A stretch of DNA of 63,715 nucleotides, counting the filler, from Candidatus Desantisbacteria bacterium CG1_02_49_89 (GTDB lineage: Bacteria > Desantisbacteria > UBA1551): assembly GCA_001871075.1 (NCBI GenBank). It is 5 parts of 5 records of this genome, joined end to end, with 100 filler letters (N's around TTAATTAATTAA, not from the genome) between each part and the next. Parts side by side here need not be neighbours in the genome. Positions count along the whole stretch, not along the records: positions 42,472 to 49,754 come from MNUP01000098.1; 4 more parts are not named here. The stretch is one strand, 5' to 3'. Below, piece by piece: positions 1 to 49,754 of the stretch. Every line of letters starts with the position of its first letter. Positions within the stretch are counted from its first letter, which is position 1. Position numbers and translations under genes: made by a program. The notes under the pieces were generated by a model. The model saw nothing but the letters and a program-made list of their open reading frames with translations. It was not told the DNA's origin and did not search any database.

Positions 1-92
1 TGATTTTTAAACCAGCCAGCCTAAATAATTTTCCCCCGGCTATGTGACACTTTGATTGTTCCCAATGTGACCTTTTGATTATTTCCGCACAG
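1..92. repeat. Imperfect inverted copy of 63454-63545, with internal ~22-bp direct repeats
   Basis: 1-26 is the exact reverse complement of 63520-63545, and 72-92 of 63454-63474. Confidence 0.85.
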
Positions 93-17745: not shown

Positions 17746-18192
17746 ATGGAAATATCAGCATGGGTAATGTGGGTGGTGATCGCGGTGGTATTCGCGATTT
17801 TCGAAATGTTCACGTTCACGTTTCTGACCATATGGTTCGCGGTGGGAGCCGGAGTGGCGGCACTGCTCGCGTATCTGGGCCTGCATCCGGGTTACCAGTG
17901 GACGTCTTTCGCGGTTGTGGCTCTTGTACTGGTTGCTTTGACGCGCCGCGTTGCGCGCAGGATAACCAGTAAATTCCAGACAAAGGGAATAGGCTCGGAC
18001 CGGTTCGCGGGCCTGAGAGGGGTCGTCACGGAGGGCATAGATCCCGCCCTTAACAAGGGCAAGGTAAAACTCGAACGGGAAGAATATGAATGGCTTGCCC
18101 TGAGCGAGACAGGCGGGAAGATCAGTTCCGGCACGGAAGTTGAGGTTGAAAGACTTGAAGGAACGAAACTCATCGTAAAGGAGGTAAAATAA
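17746..18192 (+). CDS. NfeD-family protein
   Basis: N-terminal TM segments, C-terminal OB fold GKVK..EWLA; adjacent SPFH gene. Confidence 0.9.
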   Translation: MEISAWVMWVVIAVVFAIFEMFTFTFLTIWFAVGAGVAALLAYLGLHPGYQWTSFAVVALVLVALTRRVARRITSKFQTKGIGSDRFAGLRGVVTEGIDPALNKGKVKLEREEYEWLALSETGGKISSGTEVEVERLEGTKLIVKEVK

Positions 18193-18193
18193 C

Positions 18194-19090
18194 ATGGCTA
18201 TATTGTTTTTCTTTCTGGCAGTGGTCGTTATTTCGTTTGCCACGGCAAGTATCAAGATAGTGCGGCCGTGGGAGAAGGGCCTGGTTGAAACACTGGGCAA
18301 ATATCAGACAACCGTATCCAGCGGCCTGACAGTGCTATTTCCCATCACCCAGCACATGATGAAGGTGGATATGAGGGAGCAGGTCGTGGATGTCCCGCCC
18401 CAGCACGTTATCACCAAGGATAACGTCGCGGTGGAAGTGGACGCCGTTATTTATTACGAAGTGACAGACCCGGTAAGGGTGACGTACAACGTCGCGAATT
18501 ATTACGCCGCTATCACAAAACTTTCGCAGACAAATTTAAGGAACCTTATCGGAGACATGTCGCTGGACGAAGCGCTTACATCACGCGAGAAGATCAACAC
18601 GAAACTGAAAGAAGTGCTGGACGTTGCGACTGACAGGTGGGGAACAAGGGTTACAAGAGTCGAATTGCAGCGCATTGACCCGCCGGAAGACGTGACAAAC
18701 GCCATGCACAGGCAGATGAAGGCAGAGCGCGAAAAAAGAGCGGTGATCCTTGAGGCGGAAGGCGCGAAGCAGTCCGCGATACTGAAGGCTGAAGGAGAAG
18801 CAGGAGCGATAAAAACAGTCGCTGACGCGGATAAATACAAGAAGATCACCGTTGCGAAAGGCGAGGGTGAAGCGATCCAGACGGTTTATGACTCTATACA
18901 CAGCGGGAAGCCTACCAATGACCTTATCGCGATAAAATATCTGGAGACGCTTGAAAAGATCGCGAACGGAACAGCCACAAAGATATTCATGCCGCTTGAA
19001 ACCTCCGGAGTGCTGGGAAGCCTTGCCGGCATAAGAGAACTGTTCAAGGGCGAAAAGCCGGCAGTCAAACCCGAGGAACAGAAGAAGTAG
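18194..19090 (+). CDS. SPFH/band 7 (stomatin-like) protein
   Basis: VDMREQVVDVPPQHVITKDN, QMKAEREKRA. Confidence 0.95.
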   Translation: MAILFFFLAVVVISFATASIKIVRPWEKGLVETLGKYQTTVSSGLTVLFPITQHMMKVDMREQVVDVPPQHVITKDNVAVEVDAVIYYEVTDPVRVTYNVANYYAAITKLSQTNLRNLIGDMSLDEALTSREKINTKLKEVLDVATDRWGTRVTRVELQRIDPPEDVTNAMHRQMKAEREKRAVILEAEGAKQSAILKAEGEAGAIKTVADADKYKKITVAKGEGEAIQTVYDSIHSGKPTNDLIAIKYLETLEKIANGTATKIFMPLETSGVLGSLAGIRELFKGEKPAVKPEEQKK

Positions 19091-19117
19091 AGAACGCTTA
19101 TCGCATTTTGGGTAATC

Positions 19118-19220
19118 TGTCATTGCGAGCCGAAACCGCGAGCGAAGCGTGGCGGGCAAGCGAAGCAATCTCGTTAGGGGATTGCCTCCCCGCCACGAAT
19201 ATTGGCGGGTCGCAATGACA
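19118..19220. repeat. TGTCATTGCGA..TCGCAATGACA palindromic element
   Basis: Same termini and inner gaagcaatc/gattgc at 20274-20356, 28973-29039 and 42207-42291. Confidence 0.88.
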
Positions 19221-19375
19221 CAAGGATTGGAAGTCAATGGCATAGAAAATGCAAGTTTTTCCTAAAAAAGACGGAAAACTTGCATTTTTTATGTTACTTA
19301 TATAATATTTGAAATACTTGAATATATGGGAATAATAGCAAAGGGCATAAAAAAGAGCGGATTCCTCAATTTATA

Positions 19376-19403
19376 TTGACTTTTTGCAGTATTGGAGTAT
19401 ATT
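19376..19403 (+). promoter_or_regulatory. Possible sigma70-type promoter
   Basis: TTGACT-N16-TATATT upstream of the DUF1844 gene. Confidence 0.4.
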
Positions 19404-19549
19404 ATTATTTAATAGAGTAAAATATATTAAAGCCACAGAAGATACATGCCCGGCCTCCTGCTTCAACAGTCGCCTTTTCGGCGACCTGCCGAAGAGGCAT
19501 GGCGGGTTGCCATAAGGGCGACTGTGGTTTATCTTTTGGAGGTGCTTTT

Positions 19550-19870
19550 ATGGAAGAAGAACAGGAAGATAACCCGAACTACCAGTTTATGAGCCTTGTT
19601 TATTCCCTTTCCCAGACAGCCATGATGCAGCTGGGCAAGATCACAAACCCGCTGACCGGTAAAATGGAAAGAAACATAGTCCAGGCAAAAGCTACCATAG
19701 ACATGATGGAGATGTTAAAGGAGAAAACGAAGGGCAACCTGACAAGAACCGAAGAGAAGATGATACTGACCAACCTCAGCAACCTTTACCTTAACTACAG
19801 CGATGAGGTAAACAAGGAACCTGCCCAACCCGACAAGCCCGGCAGTGAAAAACAGGAAGAGAAAAAATAA
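19550..19870 (+). CDS. DUF1844-family protein
   Basis: FMSLVYSL..AMMQLGKI.NP.TGK..A..ID...L.EKTKGNL; start after GGAGG. Confidence 0.88.
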   Translation: MEEEQEDNPNYQFMSLVYSLSQTAMMQLGKITNPLTGKMERNIVQAKATIDMMEMLKEKTKGNLTRTEEKMILTNLSNLYLNYSDEVNKEPAQPDKPGSEKQEEKK

Positions 19871-19949
19871 AGTTTACAGAGTTTACACAGTTTACAGAGT
19901 ACTTAAAAAAACTTTGTCAACTTTGTCAACTATATAAACTTTGTAAACT
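19871..19949. repeat. Nonamer GTTTACA-family palindromic element
   Basis: agtttacagagtttacacagtttacagagt / actttgtcaactttgtcaactatataaactttgtaaact. Confidence 0.82.
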
Positions 19950-19958
19950 GGAATTTAT

Positions 19959-20231
19959 ATGCGCCGAGCGCATTTGATAATAAGCGGCAGGGTGCAGGGA
20001 GTGGGTTTCAGGTACAGGGCCCGCGACATCGCGGAAGGCCTGGGCCTGAAGGGGTGGGTCAGGAACCTGCCTGATGGCAGGGTTGAAACGATCGCTGAAG
20101 GCGAAGACGCCCCCGTAGAAGAGTTTGTCAAATACTGCCGCAAGGGCCCTCCATGCGCGCACGTAAGCGGCGTGGAGATAAGCGAGGAAGAACCGCTGAA
20201 TGATCTTGCAGGTTTTGATATAGAATATTGA
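19959..20231 (+). CDS. acyP: Acylphosphatase
   Basis: ISGRVQGVGFR..GWVRNLPDGRVE. Confidence 0.95.
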   Translation: MRRAHLIISGRVQGVGFRYRARDIAEGLGLKGWVRNLPDGRVETIAEGEDAPVEEFVKYCRKGPPCAHVSGVEISEEEPLNDLAGFDIEY

Positions 20232-42471: not shown

Positions 42472-43347
42472 AACTACGCGCAGGTCGCCGAAGTAAGCCA
42501 ATGCTCAACCTCCTACACGGACAACGCCATTACAACAGACCTGATATACTACTGGACCGTGATGGCCAAGAATTCCTGGGATATGCTGAGCCTGATAAGC
42601 GAGGAAGTTGACAACAAAGGAAACCTGGTAATAATGTTGCCCGGTGAAACCCAGACTTACGTGATGCTTCCCAGGAATACGGTAATGCTGCTTGATTCGG
42701 CAGATTCAAAAGCAATAGGCATAACAGCGACGCGAACGGGTATCCTGCCGCCGACAGCCGGAGGCCTGGGCGCCATAGTAGGCATATTTGACTTTATACC
42801 CTACAGGATCTCTGACGGGGCACAGGTCGGGTTCAACGCTTCTCCCGAAACGCTTGTTATAGCCCTGCATTACGCGGCGCCGGGCGGACTTCTGGAGAAC
42901 ACAGGTATTTCTCTTGCTGACGCGGCAAAATACATAAGCATCGCTTACTGGAACGGGATACAGTGGACCAGGATCAACGGGACTGTAGACGCGGCAAACC
43001 AGAACATAACCGCCATTGTCACACACCTGAGCAGGTTCGCGATAACTGCAACGGATGTTACCTCGTTCAGGGTGCTGGCGGCTGAACCCAACCCGTTCAC
43101 TCCGCTCAACCCCCCGTATGATAAAGTAACGGTCTCCTTCGCTAATCCTAACAAATACGAGGTTATTTTCAGCATTTACGACCTTACCGGCACCCTGTTC
43201 TTCACGAAAACATATACGGCGGGCGAAATAAAGATCGAGTGGGACGGCAAAGACAGGAACGGGAATGTCGGCGAGGACGGCATTTACATTTACCAGTTGC
43301 AGTGCGGCACGCAGTCCTATACCGGCACGATGATCCTGGCCAAATAA
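42472..43347 (+). CDS. 5'-truncated secreted protein with Fn3-like remnant and C-terminal FlgD-Ig / T9SS-CTD-like sorting domain
   Basis: Frame open to the gap (SYTD..YYWTV); VTHLSRFAI; PNPFTP..IYDLTG..WDGKD..G..GIYIY.L..G.MILAK. Confidence 0.82.
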   Translation, partial: NYAQVAEVSQCSTSYTDNAITTDLIYYWTVMAKNSWDMLSLISEEVDNKGNLVIMLPGETQTYVMLPRNTVMLLDSADSKAIGITATRTGILPPTAGGLGAIVGIFDFIPYRISDGAQVGFNASPETLVIALHYAAPGGLLENTGISLADAAKYISIAYWNGIQWTRINGTVDAANQNITAIVTHLSRFAITATDVTSFRVLAAEPNPFTPLNPPYDKVTVSFANPNKYEVIFSIYDLTGTLFFTKTYTAGEIKIEWDGKDRNGNVGEDGIYIYQLQCGTQSYTGTMILAK

Positions 43348-43408
43348 CGTGTTACGTGTTACGTGTTACGGGAAATACGGGATATAAAGATCAAGAAAAA
43401 GAGGGATA

Positions 43409-44389
43409 ATGTTCAATAAATATCTCAACAAAATATTCGTGGGCATCTTTATTCTTGCGTTACACGTGACACCTTACACGTTACACGTCTGTTATGCGTC
43501 ATATGAGGACATCGGCTGCGGCGCAAGGCCCCTGGGCATCGGGAACGCGTTCTGCGCCATAGCTGACGACGCCAATGCATTCCTGTATAACCCCGCCGGG
43601 CTTCCGCAGCTTAAAAAACTGCAGGTGAGCGCAATGTACGCCAATCTTTATCCGCTATTAAGCGACAGGTCCATAATCAGCAACAATTATCTTGCGGTAG
43701 CATACCCGATGAAACAGGCGGCTATAGGGGTGGCGTGGTTCAGCCTCGGCGCGGTTTCCGACCCGGAAAGATCAAAAGCGCAATACCAGGAAAATACGTA
43801 CCTGCTGACCTACGCAAGGCAGATGGAACGCTTCTACATAGGGTTCTCGGCCAGGTTCCACTCGAAAGAATACGGCGTGAACGACTGGACAGCCGTAAAC
43901 CCCGTGTTCACAAGGAAGAAAACCGCGTTCGGCGTGGGCATTGACGCCGCGATGCTTTACAGGACCGAGGACAACCTGTTCAAGTTCGGCCTGCTGGTCG
44001 CCGACATAAACCAGCCTGACCTCGGCATAGCGTCCCCAAGCCCGGTCCCGATGTCTGCCAGGGCTGGTATCGCCTATGAATTCGAGCCGGTCTGGGTTTT
44101 CAACGACCTGACAGGCGCGGTGGATGTTACCTACCGGGATAATGACGTAAAAGCCCAGGGCGGCATAGAAGGATGGTTCATTGAAAGGACTGTAGCGGTC
44201 AGGATAGGGGGCGGGTTCGGCAGCAATTCCTACGGATTAATATCAATGGGGGCAAGCTACCAGCTTACCGAGGAACAATACAATAATGATTTCAGGATCG
44301 ATTACGCCTTCTCCTGCCCGTTAGGAGGCCTGCAGCCGACAGGCGGGACGCACAGGATATCGCTCACAATGGGATTTGATGTGAAATAA
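43409..44389 (+). CDS. PorV/PorP-SprF-like (UPF0164) outer-membrane beta-barrel
   Basis: Signal peptide; GARPLGIGNAFCAIADDANAFLYNPAGL; C-terminal IDYAF..THRISL..GF. Confidence 0.82.
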   Translation: MFNKYLNKIFVGIFILALHVTPYTLHVCYASYEDIGCGARPLGIGNAFCAIADDANAFLYNPAGLPQLKKLQVSAMYANLYPLLSDRSIISNNYLAVAYPMKQAAIGVAWFSLGAVSDPERSKAQYQENTYLLTYARQMERFYIGFSARFHSKEYGVNDWTAVNPVFTRKKTAFGVGIDAAMLYRTEDNLFKFGLLVADINQPDLGIASPSPVPMSARAGIAYEFEPVWVFNDLTGAVDVTYRDNDVKAQGGIEGWFIERTVAVRIGGGFGSNSYGLISMGASYQLTEEQYNNDFRIDYAFSCPLGGLQPTGGTHRISLTMGFDVK

Positions 44390-44604
44390 CTTGTAGCTCA
44401 TGGCTCATGGCTTTTTGGCTTAAAAAACAAAATTAAGAGCTCAAAATTAAGTTCAGTATTATCAATAAATCTTGAAGCATTAACTTTTACATTTTGCATT
44501 TTAACTTTTGACTTGTATCTATTTCCCGGATCCTTCACTTTTGCATTTTACACTTTGCACTTTGCATTTTGACTTGTATTTTGTAACCAACATAGGAGTA
44601 TTGC

Positions 44605-45774
44605 ATGGCTGAACCTATTCTATCCAAATTTAAACTGCCTCCGACTAAACTTTCAAGGCCTATAATAATAATTATTATATGCGTGGCTGTTGCTGTTTTT
44701 GGCTTTATTTTCATCAGGAACGTGAGCCGGCTCGCGTCAAACAAGATCACGCAGCAGATGAAATACAGCGAAACAAACAAAGGCATCCAGATGCCTGACG
44801 TCCCGGGGTACCAGAAACTGGCGATAGAAAAAGAAATGGAAAGAAGGGTCCAGAATATAATGGACGAGATCGTCGGGCCCCAGAAATCCATCGTCAGGGT
44901 GACAGTTGACCTCACGCCTATGATCCAGGACAAGGAAGAGGTCCACACCCCAAGGCCCATATCTACTACGAAAGAGGAAAAATACACGGTTTCCTCCGAA
45001 AGAGGAACTGAAGACAAAGCCGCGGAGGAACCTGCGGGAACCGCTGCCAAGAAAGAAAACCTGCCGGGAGTCTTTGATGACGTGGAAGACCAGATAAGAG
45101 CAAGGGGCGGGGAGGAATATTTTCTGTATCCGGGTTATCCGTCCGTGGGGGACCTTGAAGCAAAACCCATGGGCCGCGCTCCGATGGGAAGTAACCAGGA
45201 AAAATCAGGAACGAAATCAGTAAGAGAAGCGTCATCCACCGACTATGCCCTGGATAAGAAAATAACGGAAAGGACCACGCCGGCGGGAACAATAGACAGG
45301 ATAAGCGTGCTGGCGCTTGTTGACGTGAACTGGATCAAGACCTTCACCGGAAGGACGATCCAGAGGAAAAGGTCAGAAAAGGAATTAGACCAGATAAAAA
45401 CACTGATAACAGACGCGATCGGGTTCAGCGAGGACAGGGGGGACACGATAATAATGCAGAACGTCGCCTTCCTGGGAGCAAGGCCCAAGGTCGAAATGAT
45501 GGAAAGGATCACGACCGGGATAACCGTCCTGATACTGCTGCCGCTTATTTATTTTATCGTGAAAACAACGCTCACATTCCTGAAGCGCAGGGCTGAAATA
45601 AGGCAGGAAATGATCGAGAAAATGCAACAGGAAGAAGAAGCGGAGAAAGAAAGGAAAATAAAGGAAGAAAAGGAACTGAGGGAAAGGATACAGATGCACC
45701 AGGAGCAGGTGTTCACCATCGGCAGGACGCATCCCGACATTTGCGCGCGTATTATTCGAAACTGGCTTACTTAA
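44605..45774 (+). CDS. fliF: Short FliF-like MS-ring protein (TM1-RBM3/beta-collar-TM2-FliG-binding tail; RBM1/2 absent)
   Basis: EKEMERRVQNIMDEIVG..SIVRVTVDL; TDYALDK..PAGTIDRISVLALVD; ELDQIKTLI.DAIGFSEDRGDTI..NVAF; PDICARIIRNWL. Confidence 0.82.
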   Translation: MAEPILSKFKLPPTKLSRPIIIIIICVAVAVFGFIFIRNVSRLASNKITQQMKYSETNKGIQMPDVPGYQKLAIEKEMERRVQNIMDEIVGPQKSIVRVTVDLTPMIQDKEEVHTPRPISTTKEEKYTVSSERGTEDKAAEEPAGTAAKKENLPGVFDDVEDQIRARGGEEYFLYPGYPSVGDLEAKPMGRAPMGSNQEKSGTKSVREASSTDYALDKKITERTTPAGTIDRISVLALVDVNWIKTFTGRTIQRKRSEKELDQIKTLITDAIGFSEDRGDTIIMQNVAFLGARPKVEMMERITTGITVLILLPLIYFIVKTTLTFLKRRAEIRQEMIEKMQQEEEAEKERKIKEEKELRERIQMHQEQVFTIGRTHPDICARIIRNWLT

Positions 45775-45779
45775 AAAAC

Positions 45780-45877
45780 AATTATGAGTTATGAATGATG
45801 AATTATGAATTAAAGGCATGGAATTTTATCTAAATTTAACTTCCTTGCAGTTGATTCATAACTCATAATTCATAATT
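45780..45877. repeat. ATTATGA/TCATAAT heptamer-armed element, copy 4
   Basis: Same arms and core as other copies. Confidence 0.88.
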
Positions 45878-45910
45878 TTATTTGTATTTAAAAGGAAGGA
45901 GCAAAAGCAA

Positions 45911-46168
45911 ATGACTGGATTTACATTACTTATATTAGTATCTATTGGAGCAATAGCCGGGATCACTTATCTGGTCATAAGAATGAACGCGTCTTCCTCT
46001 GAAAAAAAGGCGGTGCGCGCCGCCGAAAAGAGAAAGACTGACACCGAGGAAAGGGAAAAGCAGGAAAAAATGCGCATTGAAATGCAGATGCACCAGGAAG
46101 AAGCGCTCGCGATGGCGAAGAACAATCCTGAGCTGGTCGCGCGGGTAGTGCGCAACTGGCTTACTTGA
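45911..46168 (+). CDS. Mini-FliF: single TM + coiled coil + FliG-binding tail
   Basis: AGGAG RBS; QMHQE..NPELVARVVRNWLT is paralogous to the FliF tail QMHQE..HPDICARIIRNWLT. Confidence 0.8.
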   Translation: MTGFTLLILVSIGAIAGITYLVIRMNASSSEKKAVRAAEKRKTDTEEREKQEKMRIEMQMHQEEALAMAKNNPELVARVVRNWLT

Positions 46169-46177
46169 AAAATATAT

Positions 46178-46274
46178 TTATGAGTTATGAATGATGAATT
46201 ATGAATTAACCGCAAGGATGTTTATTTAAATAGAAATTCCTTCACTCATAACTCATAATTCATAACTCATAATT
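46178..46274. repeat. ATTATGA/TCATAAT heptamer-armed element, copy 5
   Basis: Left arm near-identical to copy 4. Confidence 0.88.
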
Positions 46275-46291
46275 AAGGAGAGGGAGGAACA

Positions 46292-47296
46292 ATGGCGGAA
46301 GAACAGGAAGTTAAAACTTTGACGGCGGAAACGCTGTCGGGAGGCCAGAAAGCGGCGATACTTCTTATAGCGCTTGGGCCTGAAATATCCACGGAAGTCT
46401 ATAAGCACATGGGCGAGGCGCAGATACGCCAGCTCACAAGGGAAATAGCGGGGCTCAGGCAGGTCACCAAGGATATAAGGGAAGCGGTATTCGAGGAATT
46501 CTACCAGAAAGCCATGGGCCTTGACTACATAAAGGGAAGCTCTGAGGACGCGCTGGACTTCCTCAAACGGACCTTCGGGGACGAGAAAGCCGCCGAGTTC
46601 ATGGAAGAGGTAAAAACAGCCGAGGATGGCGGCCCGGGGCTTTTTGATTTCCTGAAAAACCTCGGAACTGATTTCCTTTACGAAGAACACCCGCAGGTCG
46701 CGGCCCTGGTGTTGTCGCACATGACACCCGAATGGGTCTCCTCAATAGTCTCAGCCGCGCCGCCGGCGTTCCAGGCAGACGTGCCCGAAAGAATGGCGAC
46801 GATGGGCGAGGTAATGCCTGATGTGATAAAGGAAATAAGGGACCTGCTGCGCAAAAAGATGTCTTCCGCGACAAAAAAGGAAGCTACGTCCAAGAACAGG
46901 CTCAGTTTCCTCGCGAAGATGGTGGAAGGCGACGGCGGTGACAGGGTCCTGGAAGGCTTAAGGCAAAAAGACCCGAAGCTTGCGGAAGAAGTAAGGGGGC
47001 TGGTATTCCTTTTTGAGGACGTGGTTACCATTGAAGATGAATCTCTGCAGCTCGCGCTGGGAAAAGTGGGGGTAGAGGACCTTGTTATGGCGCTCAAGGG
47101 CGCGACGAAGGAAATAAAGGACAAGATATTCAAGAACGTCTCCGGAAGGCTGCGTTCCATACTGAACGAAGAGCTCGAATACAAGAAGGAATCCCGCAAG
47201 GCGGATGTGGACAAGGCGCAGCGGAAGCTCGTCAACATACTGCGCGAGCTGGACAAGTCCGGAGATATCATACTTAAAAAAACAGAAACAGTCTGA
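46292..47296 (+). CDS. fliG: Flagellar motor switch/rotor protein FliG
   Basis: LSGGQKAAILLIALG, EHPQ, PKLAEEVR..VFLFEDV, LVMALKGA, NVSGR..ILNEELE torque helix, VDKAQR. Confidence 0.92.
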   Translation: MAEEQEVKTLTAETLSGGQKAAILLIALGPEISTEVYKHMGEAQIRQLTREIAGLRQVTKDIREAVFEEFYQKAMGLDYIKGSSEDALDFLKRTFGDEKAAEFMEEVKTAEDGGPGLFDFLKNLGTDFLYEEHPQVAALVLSHMTPEWVSSIVSAAPPAFQADVPERMATMGEVMPDVIKEIRDLLRKKMSSATKKEATSKNRLSFLAKMVEGDGGDRVLEGLRQKDPKLAEEVRGLVFLFEDVVTIEDESLQLALGKVGVEDLVMALKGATKEIKDKIFKNVSGRLRSILNEELEYKKESRKADVDKAQRKLVNILRELDKSGDIILKKTETV

Positions 47297-47391
47297 TAAT
47301 AGTAACAAGTAACAAGTGTCAAGTATCAAGTTTGAAACTGGCCACTGGAAACTGGCCACTGGAAACTGTAGTTCAAGGAAGGAGTGAAGCC

Positions 47392-47964
47392 ATGGCTGAA
47401 TTGACAAATGAGCAGAAGGGCGTCCTTAAGGATCTTCTTACAAACCTTGGCGGAAGAACAAGCGAGTCTTTCTCGAAGGTCGCTAAAAGAAGGGTAGAGG
47501 TTAAATACACCAAGTGGGAAATAGAGGATTACCAAAAATTCATCGAATACCTCCCGCACTTCACCGCGATAGGGATATTCGGGACCGAACTGTCCAAGGA
47601 CCAGATACTTATTGACGCGCATCCGTCTTTGTCCTACTACCTGCTGGACAAGCTGCTGGGCGGGAAAGGGGAAGCCGGGATTATCGAAGGAAAGAAAATG
47701 ACAGAGATAGAAAGGGTGCTTTTCCAGGATTTTGTTTTCGCGGGACTTACGCAATCCTGGGAAGAAGGCTGGGAAAACATCACGGGGCTGCAGCTCAAAA
47801 TGAGCCTTATAAGGGTTGAGAGCGACCCGTTCCTTACCAGAAGGATGGACGGCAAATTCGTGCACGCCTTTATGGAATGCCAGTTCGAAAAAGGCAAGGA
47901 AGAAATAAACGTCTGCATCCCGCACAAAGTCGCGGAGATGATCGGCGCCGCCCCGCAAGCATAA
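47392..47964 (+). CDS. fliM: FliM middle (CheC-like) domain only
   Basis: YQKFIEYLP, LLDKLLGGKG (GGxG), MTEIER, INVCIP; no N-terminal LSQxEID peptide and no C-terminal SPOA domain; start after GGAG. Confidence 0.78.
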   Translation: MAELTNEQKGVLKDLLTNLGGRTSESFSKVAKRRVEVKYTKWEIEDYQKFIEYLPHFTAIGIFGTELSKDQILIDAHPSLSYYLLDKLLGGKGEAGIIEGKKMTEIERVLFQDFVFAGLTQSWEEGWENITGLQLKMSLIRVESDPFLTRRMDGKFVHAFMECQFEKGKEEINVCIPHKVAEMIGAAPQA

Positions 47965-48121
47965 AATCCGTCGAGCGTCGTAGGTCGTACGTAAATACCG
48001 TCATACGTCGTAGGTCGTACGTTTTAAGATTATGTGTATGACGCATGACGAATGACGAATAATCACTGTAATCATCTTTAAAAAATCACTGTAATCGTCT
48101 TTAAGGAAAAGGGGAGTAAAT

Positions 48122-49252
48122 ATGCGCGTTAAATTGACGAAGTCAATGATACTGGCCATAATGATCATGCTGACCGCCGGCAATGCGGTATACGGGAGCT
48201 TCAACCGCACGACAGGCCTGATAAACATCCCCACGGCCGGAACAACGCTGAAAGAAGGCGATTTTGAAAAAGGCCTTCTGGTGAATTTCTCCTCCGAAAT
48301 ATTCACGATGGATATGAAACTCAACTACGGCATCAACGACAGGTGCGAAATAGGCATATCCATATTTGACGCGTTCGGCTCAGCGGCAACCAAGGCGAAT
48401 TTCCACTGGCAGGTACTCGGCGGAAAAAAGATACAGATGGCCCTGGGTATCCAGAACATACCTCTTGCCGGCGATATCAACCTTGTTCCTAATTCGCTTT
48501 CCCCGTATGCGGTTTTTACCCTTTATGTGATCCCGAGTATGTCGCTCAATGTGGGGATGGGAGGCGGCAGGTTCAGAAGCGAAACCCTTGCTCCGGGGTT
48601 CGGCGGGTTTTTCGCAGGCATAGAGTTCCTTATCAAGTCCACGAAACTCGGATTTGAATACGACGGCAACTGGCTTAACGTCGGAATTAAATACAACCTT
48701 ACGCCAAACATAATACTCGAAGGCGCGGGGATACGCCTAAATGATACCGCGAAAGGCCTTGCTGCGACCGTGGGCGTCAGCATCATAGATTTCCCCAAGA
48801 GGCAGTCCGCGGAAATATCGGAAGGCGTGATCAGCAAAGACGAGATAACAAAAATAATAAACGACCAGATAATGAAAATAATGCCTATAGAGGAAAAACC
48901 TGCGGGTCCGGGCATGGGCGAAACCCCCGGAGGAAGGCTTACCGGGATCAAAGAAGACCAGGCAACTATGGACAACCTTGCGTTCGAGCACGCCCAGGCG
49001 GGCACGCGCTATTACTTCCAGGGTGAATACGCCAAGGCGGTTGACGAGTTCAAAATGGCGATCGCGATGAATGAAAATATTTTCATATTCCACTGCCAGC
49101 TCGGTTCCGTGTATTACAAACTCGGGATGATCGACAGCGCGGTCTCGGAATGGAACAGGGCGCTTGAGATCAACCCCAACGACAAGAATCTCAGCGAATT
49201 CCTGTTAAAAGTGCTTGAGGGCAAAATGGAAGCGGACCTCGCCCCGCGTTAG
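48122..49252 (+). CDS. YjbH-like outer-membrane beta-barrel with C-terminal TPR domain
   Basis: Signal peptide; TTGLINIPTA..L; FFAGIEF, EYDG..LNVG; TPR G..Y..G.Y..A...F..A and LG.VY...G. Confidence 0.7.
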   Translation: MRVKLTKSMILAIMIMLTAGNAVYGSFNRTTGLINIPTAGTTLKEGDFEKGLLVNFSSEIFTMDMKLNYGINDRCEIGISIFDAFGSAATKANFHWQVLGGKKIQMALGIQNIPLAGDINLVPNSLSPYAVFTLYVIPSMSLNVGMGGGRFRSETLAPGFGGFFAGIEFLIKSTKLGFEYDGNWLNVGIKYNLTPNIILEGAGIRLNDTAKGLAATVGVSIIDFPKRQSAEISEGVISKDEITKIINDQIMKIMPIEEKPAGPGMGETPGGRLTGIKEDQATMDNLAFEHAQAGTRYYFQGEYAKAVDEFKMAIAMNENIFIFHCQLGSVYYKLGMIDSAVSEWNRALEINPNDKNLSEFLLKVLEGKMEADLAPR

Positions 49253-49357
49253 CATTCGTAACGTCGTGCGTCGTTCTTCGTGCATCGTCAAAACTGTTGC
49301 GTGTTGCCGTGTTTAGCGTGTTACGTGTTAAATCTTAAAAATTTTGAAAATTTTTTG

Positions 49358-49410
49358 GGAGTAGGGGCTTTAGCCCCGTAATTATATCGTGAGCCTAAAG
49401 GCTCTACTCC
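49358..49410. repeat. GTAG REPIN
   Basis: ggagtaggggctttagcccc ... gagcctaaaggctctactcc. Confidence 0.8.
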
Positions 49411-49477
49411 AAAAGACTCTATTCCAGTTTTAAAATCCGTGAAAATCCGTGGCAATCCGTGGTTAAATAGGAATGAT

Positions 49478-49687
49478 ATGATAAAAGTGACGAAATTCGA
49501 CGGGAATACAATTGTTATAAACGCGGATATGATAGAAACGGTGGAATGCACCCCCGACACCGTTATTTCCCTGACCACAAAAAATAAGATACTGGTCAAG
49601 GAATCAATTGATGAAGTGATTGCAAAGGTCCTCGCGTATAAACAGCAGGTGCACAAGTTCCCGGAACAGAGCGGATCTAATAATTAA
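49478..49687 (+). CDS. flbD: FlbD/SwrD family protein
   Basis: MIKVTKFDG..IVINADMIETVECTPDTVISLT...ILVKESIDEVI..V..YK. Confidence 0.92.
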   Translation: MIKVTKFDGNTIVINADMIETVECTPDTVISLTTKNKILVKESIDEVIAKVLAYKQQVHKFPEQSGSNN

Positions 49688-49754
49688 ATTCAGTGACAAG
49701 TAACAAGTGACAAGTAACAAGTTAAAAACTGGACACTGGATACTGGACACTGGA

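Follow-up and report, generated by a model that had tools for sequence, protein, structure and literature searches.

A whole FliG and a middle-domain FliM in a conserved operon, probably for a flagellar-type rotor-stator machine without a flagellum

What might a bacterium do with a whole FliG and, directly behind it, a FliM reduced to its middle domain? The question is raised by positions 46292-47964 of the window analysed here (the whole stretch of 63,715 nucleotides from Candidatus Desantisbacteria bacterium CG1_02_49_89, assembly GCA_001871075.1), for which a preliminary description had proposed a stator-driven C ring that is not switched by chemotaxis. The window consists of separate contigs of a metagenome-assembled genome (MAG; 150 contigs, 2.48 Mb, 93.54% complete, 1.78% contamination) joined by runs of N, and the pair lies on contig C8 (window 42472-49754, 7283 bp, all genes on the + strand), so that genes past 49754 are not neighbours of FliG and FliM. 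As judged from sequence, the pair is probably part of a conserved operon encoding a rotor-stator machine of flagellar type that operates with no flagellum.

The rotor and stator genes are listed below, with FliF' and FliM' denoting the short forms of FliF and FliM. The operon is also carried by three metagenome loci, L014, L015 (on a 30.8-kb contig, 64% identity in FliM') and L016.

44605..45774, + strand: truncated FliF' of 389 aa with a first transmembrane segment (TM1), RBM3/β-collar, TM2 and FliG-binding tail, without RBM1-2 (PF08345 alone)
45911..46168, + strand: 85-aa membrane protein, paralogue of the FliF TM2-linker-tail region, ending in RVVRNWLT
46292..47296, + strand: FliG of 334 aa, full length (Pfam FliG_N, FliG_M and FliG_C; 79% identical to the L015 orthologue)
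47392..47964, + strand: FliM', FliM middle domain only, 190 aa with GGKG kept (PF02154, alignment, model)
49478..49687, + strand: FlbD, a stator accessory (PF06289, E 1.5e-25)
L014 8137-12115, same strand, after FlbD: MotA, MotB, FliL and an Ig/TPR protein

The FliG is canonical in both family membership and interface residues. It scores 261.8 bits against the TIGR00207 cut-off of 226.7, placing it in the FliG family at the equivalog level. In the alignment to T. maritima FliG (1lkv/4fhr) the EHPQ motif is identical, VFLFED aligns on MFVFED, and KNVSGRLRSILNEELEY..R aligns on KNMSKRAAALLKDELEY..R. The torque helix retains the Lys, Arg, acidic pair and Arg that form the MotA-contact set in the flagellar literature (for E. 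coli, PMC12505986 gives the residue pairs R90/D288-D289 and E98/R281). Across an alignment of 25 FliG sequences there is no variation at E132, P134, Q135, R286 and R302, and hardly any at H133, E293 and E296. Two close relatives were found, the next level being FliGs of 36-41% identity named Bacillota by their sources. The alignment to the T. maritima structures thus bears out the preliminary description of a FliG that keeps EHPQ, VFLF and a charged torque helix.

FliM', by comparison with full-length FliM, has both ends removed. A Shine-Dalgarno sequence (GGAAGGAG) precedes ATG 47392 and all five members of the family share this start, which fixes the length at 190 aa; the upstream TTG at 47332 was rejected as an artefact of the open reading frame (ORF) caller. 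PF02154 matches with 72.2 bits (cut-off 27) over profile positions 10-188 of 192, whereas TIGR01397 matches at positions 53-222 of 320 alone (73.7 bits vs a cut-off of 219.6), so that the protein falls short of a full-length switch protein. When the five short proteins were aligned with 25 other FliM-family sequences, mostly full-length, 5/5 lacked the LSQxEIDxLL peptide at the N-terminus together with the linker and YDF (~45 aa in all), with GG.G kept, and 5/5 lacked the ~100-aa SpoA tail. The GGKG of FliM' aligned on the GGxG of H. pylori FliM. An AlphaFold2 (AF2) model of FliM' (pLDDT 90.4, pTM 0.86) overlays solved FliM middle domains from end to end (4fq0_A, E 3.5e-13, TMt 0.86; 5x0z_F, TMt 0.88; rmsd 2.0-2.3 Å). 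Identity as CheC or FliY was rejected, as FliM_M chains outrank CheC (E 1e-13 vs 1e-8) and GGxG is present; CheX also ranked lower. The ORF, profile and alignment agree with the earlier account of a 190-aa FliM that has GGxG without the CheY-binding peptide or the SpoA domain, and the frameshifted SpoA domain past 47964 that would have overturned that account was not found: 157 bp separate FliM' from the gene that follows (15 bp in L015), and PF01052 had no match in any of the six frames of the genome. One further candidate for a middle-only FliM, a 203-aa protein of another lineage (P0049), is encoded on a contig of 859 bp and is probably incomplete.

FliF' shows a comparable truncation on its N-terminal side. 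The protein aligns with Salmonella FliF residues 241-555 and is shorter by ~190 aa (RBM1-2) than six canonical FliFs. Its TIGR00206 match covers positions 241-551 with 54.8 bits, below the cut-off of 129.75 and therefore short of a full-length FliF, and PF01514 is absent from 7/7 members of the short-FliF family. RBM1-2 is the part of the MS ring that houses the export gate. The AF2 model of FliF' is confident in the RBM3 core alone, and its top 18 PDB matches are all FliF RBM3/S-ring chains. The 85-aa protein encoded immediately downstream aligns collinearly with the C-terminal 91 residues of FliF', both ending in the RNWLT motif; it gives a weak TIGR00206 match (positions 503-551) and is conserved in L015 (58.5% identity, with an invariant tail).

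The stator genes are missing from the MAG and were recovered from L014, a 12,999-bp metagenome contig that is 99.93% identical to C8 over 7208 bp. The ends of L014 match MAG contigs C62 and C84 at 100%, and L014 joins C62 to C8. Directly after FlbD, for which the listed ORF begins at GTG 49439 although orthologues (beginning MIKVT) indicate ATG 49478, L014 carries a MotA with MotA_N and MotA_ExbB domains (best PDB match C. sporogenes MotA, 202 bits) in which ARRRGLLALE retains the R-x7-E spacing, and a MotB with MotB_plug, the channel Asp in TYSDL and an OmpA-like peptidoglycan-binding domain. Both proteins belong to the MotA/MotB stator family on this contig. The MAG itself has no motA, motB or fliL because C8 breaks (end 49754) at dispersed intergenic repeats; its sole MotA/ExbB-family match is an ExbB next to a TonB-dependent-receptor-like barrel (C126:7253-9660, outside the window), and no separate TolQ was seen in it. 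In 4/4 other runs in Logan, pieces of MotA, MotB and FliL are present with depths comparable to those of FliM' and barrel pieces; the Logan contigs break where C8 does, at the intergenic repeats, and none spans flbD to motA by 31 letters on each side. Given the 99.93% identity to C8, the perfect matches of the L014 ends to C62 and C84 and the comparable depths, we assign the stator to the same organism. The preliminary description had taken the lack of a MotA-like stator in a complete genome as evidence against a driven C ring; by that measure the MAG alone would mislead, since MotA and MotB stand directly downstream on L014.

The remainder of a flagellum was sought by profile searches of the 93.54%-complete genome, and the same searches matched in flagellated control genomes. 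No match was found in the genome to the export gate (FlhA PF00771 and FliP PF00813, with positive controls in 4-5 flagellates), to the rod N-terminus (PF00460), the rod/hook C-terminus (PF06429) or flagellin (PF00669). Neither FliN nor FliY, which the preliminary description had marked for searching, was found anywhere in the genome in six frames (SpoA PF01052). CheW (PF01584) and MCP (PF00015) likewise had 0 matches in the genome, CheA and CheY not having been searched directly. Both FliF' and FliM' are complete ORFs, and the losses of RBM1-2 and SpoA are therefore independent of the assembly. The proposal of a stator-driven C ring that is not switched by chemotaxis consequently stands in part. 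The contact motifs, the torque helix, MotA and MotB on L014 and the blank CheW and MCP searches agree with it, whereas the structure is more than an unswitched flagellar C ring: there was no match to SpoA, FlhA, FliP, rod, hook or flagellin, FliF' is without RBM1-2, and conserved non-flagellar envelope genes stand within the operon.

Conservation of the operon was followed across three lineages. Between L014 and L015 blastp finds 11/12 genes collinear at 54-80% identity, from the giant surface protein through to the Ig/TPR protein, with FliG (79%) and MotA (80%) the best kept (the L015 FlbD was identified by eye in a translated frame). Across the 10 genes tested between the two loci, synonymous differences are saturated (pS 0.80-0.93) vs pN of 0.13-0.28. 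L016, from a third lineage (50% FliM identity), keeps the order FliG-FliM'-barrelTPR-FlbD-MotA-MotB. As far as these substitution patterns and gene orders tell, the operon is maintained by selection and is not decaying. Both short proteins make up small families set sharply apart. For the short FliM there are five sequences, that of the window included, among 5.8 billion proteins, and one 50%-identity cluster among 1.84 billion (E 1e-103 for its representative, with the next match at 1e-18), and for the short FliF there are seven sequences, the next match being at E 1e-8. A contig-level scan with the short-FliM alignment found no relative. GTDB holds two species in this phylum, and the only other genome (87% complete) gave no match with FliM' or FliG queries. 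DNA of the locus was found in 24 groundwater or aquifer runs.

Interleaved with the rotor genes are genes for envelope proteins, so that the order on C8 is the 3' end of a protein with a type IX secretion system (T9SS)-type sorting tail, PorV/PorP-like barrel, FliF', 85-aa protein, FliG, FliM', barrel-TPR protein and FlbD. The envelope genes within the window are:

42472..43347, + strand: 3' end of a giant Ig-like/fn3 surface protein (>2,300 aa) with a T9SS-type C-terminal sorting domain (CTD; TIGR04183)
43409..44389, + strand: PorV/PorP-like outer-membrane β-barrel, 326 aa (NF033709, PF11751)
48122..49252, + strand: barrel-TPR protein, 376 aa, with a signal peptide, a YjbH/MetA-like outer-membrane barrel and a C-terminal TPR

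The tail of the giant protein matches TIGR04183 with 24.8 bits (cut-off 23) and also FlgD_ig/CHU_C. Its 5' part lies on MAG contig C62, where the ORF extends over at least 1830 aa and includes a Big_5 domain; in L015 the orthologue has at least 2148 aa with a CTD. The PorV-like barrel matches NF033709 (PorV_fam) with E 2.5e-23 and 83.2 bits (below the cut-off of 90) and PF11751 (PorP_SprF) with E 1.4e-5, and is 65% identical to its L015 orthologue. In the barrel-TPR protein, orthologues of which occur in L015 and L016, residues 25-240 resemble YjbH-type barrels (atlas feature score 0.93-0.94, TM 0.83-0.84) and TPR Pfam matches fall at residues 294-354. The Ig/TPR protein on L014 has 481 aa and is secreted; it combines three Ig-like repeats with a long linker rich in Ala, Lys, Pro and Glu and a terminal TPR, and an atlas search gave no usable match for it. 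The barrel domain of the 376-aa protein was tried as a marker of the rotor system against 400 genomes of other phyla and rejected: among 11 weak matches, of which eight loci were fetched, one alone (G066) had adjoining MotA and MotB, with no FliG on its 13-kb contig. Zorya was rejected as well (PADLOC), as MotB shows a generic similarity to ZorB alone, MotA has no ZorA match and the other nine proteins have no match. Downstream of the L015 operon (17842-20127) are three tandem DUF11 proteins of ~188 aa and small secreted proteins, one of which (233 aa) is 40% identical to the 147-aa protein with which MAG contig C84 begins.

The giant gene followed by a PorP/PorV-like barrel gene recalls an arrangement that we take to be comparable to sprB-sprF of Bacteroidota gliding. 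Like the T9SS and gliding apparatus of the Bacteroidota, the operon would couple an ion-driven motor of the MotAB superfamily to outer-membrane barrels holding large CTD proteins; unlike that apparatus, in which GldLM acts on GldKN, MotAB here is paired with a FliG ring (a comparison drawn in part from PMC9143113 and PMC8986121). GldM gave 0 matches in the genome, but the control genomes were silent too. SprA_N gave one weak match (E 0.003), and the PorU model matched CTD parts only.

Set beside the flagellar motor core of the Bacillota/Thermotogota type, the system is alike in its whole FliG, the FliM middle domain, the RBM3/collar-TM2-tail portion of FliF, and MotA and MotB; FliL and FlbD are also present, and the order flbD-motA-motB-fliL is kept. 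It differs from the flagellum firstly in what was not found, namely an export gate, rod, hook, filament, FliN/FliY and chemotaxis genes (with CheA and CheY outside the direct searches), secondly in having a FliF without RBM1-2, a FliM without the CheY peptide and SpoA, and an extra 85-aa copy of the FliF tail, and finally in an operon that also takes in outer-membrane barrels, proteins with TPR and Ig domains, and a giant protein with a T9SS-type tail.

A second point of comparison is provided by other phyla, of which 400 genomes were sampled. FliG_C matched in 189/401 genomes, and among 21 genomes with weak FliG_C scores 10 matches, in eight genomes (G184, G335, G293, G048, G215, G279, G251 and G274), fell within ORFs of 495-740 aa (FliG_M+C). 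MotA and MotB adjoin these long ORFs in 7/10 loci fetched, and FlhA was found in 0/8 of the genomes, one of which is a single-contig genome that is 99% complete. Two of the clusters come close to the present operon in make-up. L051 encodes a PorV-like barrel with TPR, then FliF_C, FliG_M, FliG_C and TPR in one protein, a 1044-aa unknown protein, FlbD, MotA and MotB. L056 encodes an fn3/CTD protein, a PorV-like barrel with TPR, a barrel with TPR, FliG_M+C, MotA and MotB. Both kinds of system place a flagellar-type stator beside a FliG-domain rotor, the fused ones in genomes without FlhA, and in L051 and L056 the same relative order extends across FlbD, the PorV-like barrel with TPR and, where present, the CTD surface protein. 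Two different clusters of FliG-domain rotor and MotAB occur per genome in G184 (L050/L051) and G335 (L055/L056), and L049 and L050 each have two MotB genes in tandem. We know of no published description of fused FliF-FliG-type rotors with their own MotAB.

The fused rotors differ from the present system in that FliF' and FliG form one polypeptide without FliG_N and that neither FliM nor FliL adjoins them, whereas here FliF', FliG and FliM' are encoded separately and every interface motif is canonical, which sets the system outside the fused class. The H and Q of EHPQ are kept in 0/9 fused-type proteins aligned and the torque-helix Arg is lost in most, while FliG here and its L015 orthologue are canonical in the same alignment. 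A FliM-family match occurs in 1/8 genomes (G274), and none stands beside a rotor; the G274 match was set aside as unrelated, being a 381-aa fusion of DUF4388 with a FliM middle domain (L059 9415-10560, G274:C76) by CcmH/cytochrome c biogenesis genes. Since the fused rotors have neither FliM nor EHPQ and both are kept here, retention of EHPQ goes with retention of FliM'. In a MotA tree of 32 rows, 21 of them flagellar stators chosen by hand, the three sequences of this system group together (100/100), and their sister group consists of the L051 and L055 stators (96/89), with other fusion-cluster stators elsewhere, two on long branches. On the best reading, the present system is the most flagellum-like of its class.

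How such a machine might be built can be proposed from its parts. Everything required to generate torque between a MotAB stator anchored to peptidoglycan and a FliG ring mounted on the membrane is encoded, with intact contact residues, while the searches found nothing for export, the axial structure, the base of the C ring or CheY input (CheA and CheY not having been searched directly). FliF' would form an S-ring with a collar, and FliG would use both the FliF' tail and the 85-aa paralogue, a putative second membrane anchor for FliG_N, as docking sites. MotA5B2 units anchored to the peptidoglycan would turn the FliG ring on this S-ring, with FliM' bracing FliG_M from below through a GGKG-EHPQ contact. 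Because FliM' is without the CheY peptide and there is no FliN base, the motor is most likely not CheY-switched and perhaps rotates one way only. Torque would exit via the periplasmic collar and not via a rod. In the most speculative step, the Ig/TPR protein, the barrel-TPR protein and the PorV-like barrel may link the rotor to the giant T9SS-tailed protein, which the machine would move, mount or secrete, as GldLM does for SprB. We offer only tentatively the fuller proposal that the system is a less reduced representative of a family of rotary machines that span the envelope and have not yet been described. Its core (FliF S-ring, FliG, FliM middle domain, MotAB, FliL and FlbD) would run with neither a type III export apparatus nor an axial structure, and delivery of torque through the Ig/TPR and barrel-TPR proteins to a PorV-held giant adhesin would make it a flagellum-derived counterpart of the gliding/T9SS motor.

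The alternative that survives best accepts a working non-flagellar rotor and gives it an output unrelated to the PorV-like barrel and giant protein, at the inner membrane, in the periplasm, in envelope remodelling or through a distantly encoded partner. Such an output is possible, though we regard it as doubtful. The genome has 18 CTD matches and 22 PorV-like tblastn matches, and a PorV-like gene directly follows the CTD gene in 9/18 (such pairs are seen, for example, on C112, C82, C36, C139, C133, C90, C106, C127 and C8); in addition, the fusion-type clusters L049, L050, L054 and L057 show the rotor with MotA and MotB alone on the stretches read. On the other hand, the giant protein and PorV-like barrel occupy the same place in L015, and L051 and L056, from two unrelated genomes, have a PorV-like barrel with TPR beside a FliG-domain rotor and MotAB, one of them with a CTD protein also.

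That the genes are a decaying remnant, with the flagellum lost and what is left turning into pseudogenes, is very unlikely. In its favour are the blank genome searches for most flagellar genes, the truncation of FliF and FliM, and the mention of non-functional flagellar remnants in a published survey (PMC12199754). Decay is nevertheless difficult to reconcile with reading frames intact in three lineages and with FliG and MotA 79-80% identical where synonymous sites are saturated. The truncations, moreover, stop exactly at domain borders and are common to 5/5 short FliM and 7/7 short FliF proteins, interface residues are retained, and non-flagellar genes are interleaved in fixed order. An ordinary flagellum with its remaining genes unassembled or unbinned is scarcely credible, for although a 150-contig, 93.5%-complete MAG did miss motA, motB and fliL at repeat breaks, eight independent family searches were blank where controls were positive, the FliF without RBM1-2 and the FliM without SpoA are traits of complete ORFs, the 20.6 kb read of the 30.8-kb L015 contig holds no further flagellar gene, and FlhA is missing from 8/8 genomes with related long FliG-domain ORFs, including the single-contig one.

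Several points weigh against a flagellum-free machine coupled to the envelope proteins. The link to the PorV-like barrel and giant protein comes from gene order kept in two lineages only, and as the CTD/PorV-like pair is common in the genome it could be a mere neighbour with no functional link. A MAG that lost motA, motB and fliL to an assembly gap could be hiding other flagellar genes likewise. All NCBIfam equivalog scores are below cut-off except that of FliG, the MotA tree has just 21 hand-picked flagellar rows and some long branches, and no RNA run is listed with the locus.

The repeats at which C8 breaks recur through the genome, and two copies were located within the window:

45757..45877, no strand: dispersed intergenic repeat, first copy (blastn of L014 vs the genome)
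46151-46274: dispersed intergenic repeat, second copy

The repeat measures ~100-125 bp, and copies 82-93% identical occur on at least seven other MAG contigs (C59, C42, C140, C135, C106, C84 and others). It also occurs in L014 (9796-9890), and contigs of several assemblies have their breakpoints at such repeats. The 12-mer ATCACTGTAATC has 137 copies across the 2.48 Mb of the genome, many of them in tandem pairs upstream of genes, with sites noted at window 48062-48105 and L014 12650-12780; it may represent a REP-like element or else a binding site. The spacers 47297-47391 and 47965-48121 are made of short direct repeats (among them gtaacaag x2, aaactggccactgg x2, cgtcgtaggtcgtacgt x2 and atgacg x3). 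Outside the window, downstream of the Ig/TPR gene, 4-5 tandem copies of a palindromic unit (TTCGTAGGGCAAGCCTTTAGGCTTGCG-like) close the operon at L014 12130-12330. Window positions 1-60, at the start of contig C6, recur on eight other contigs and constitute another dispersed repeat. Promoter and terminator scans gave counts near the shuffled expectation.

To our knowledge, the established ion-driven rotary machines are of three kinds only: ATP synthase, the flagellar motor and the 5:2 motors of the Ton, Tol and T9SS systems. Full-text searches of the literature, supplements (which could list such genomes) not included, yielded no description of an operon like this one. A rotor and stator held under selection without an export gate, rod or filament would mean that the best-studied bacterial motor has been put to a new use and, if the reading is correct, that the flagellar torque module can exist and be selected alone, apart from the secretion module. 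The operon would then show which parts are retained when rotation is needed and secretion, a filament and chemotactic switching are not. It would also amount to a natural deletion experiment on the interfaces of the rotor, in which EHPQ and FliM' are kept together here and lost together in the fused rotors and, as a second pattern, loss of RBM1-2 accompanies loss of the export gate. Should the giant surface adhesin prove to be the output, this would be a new mechanism of motility or surface display in poorly known groundwater phyla.

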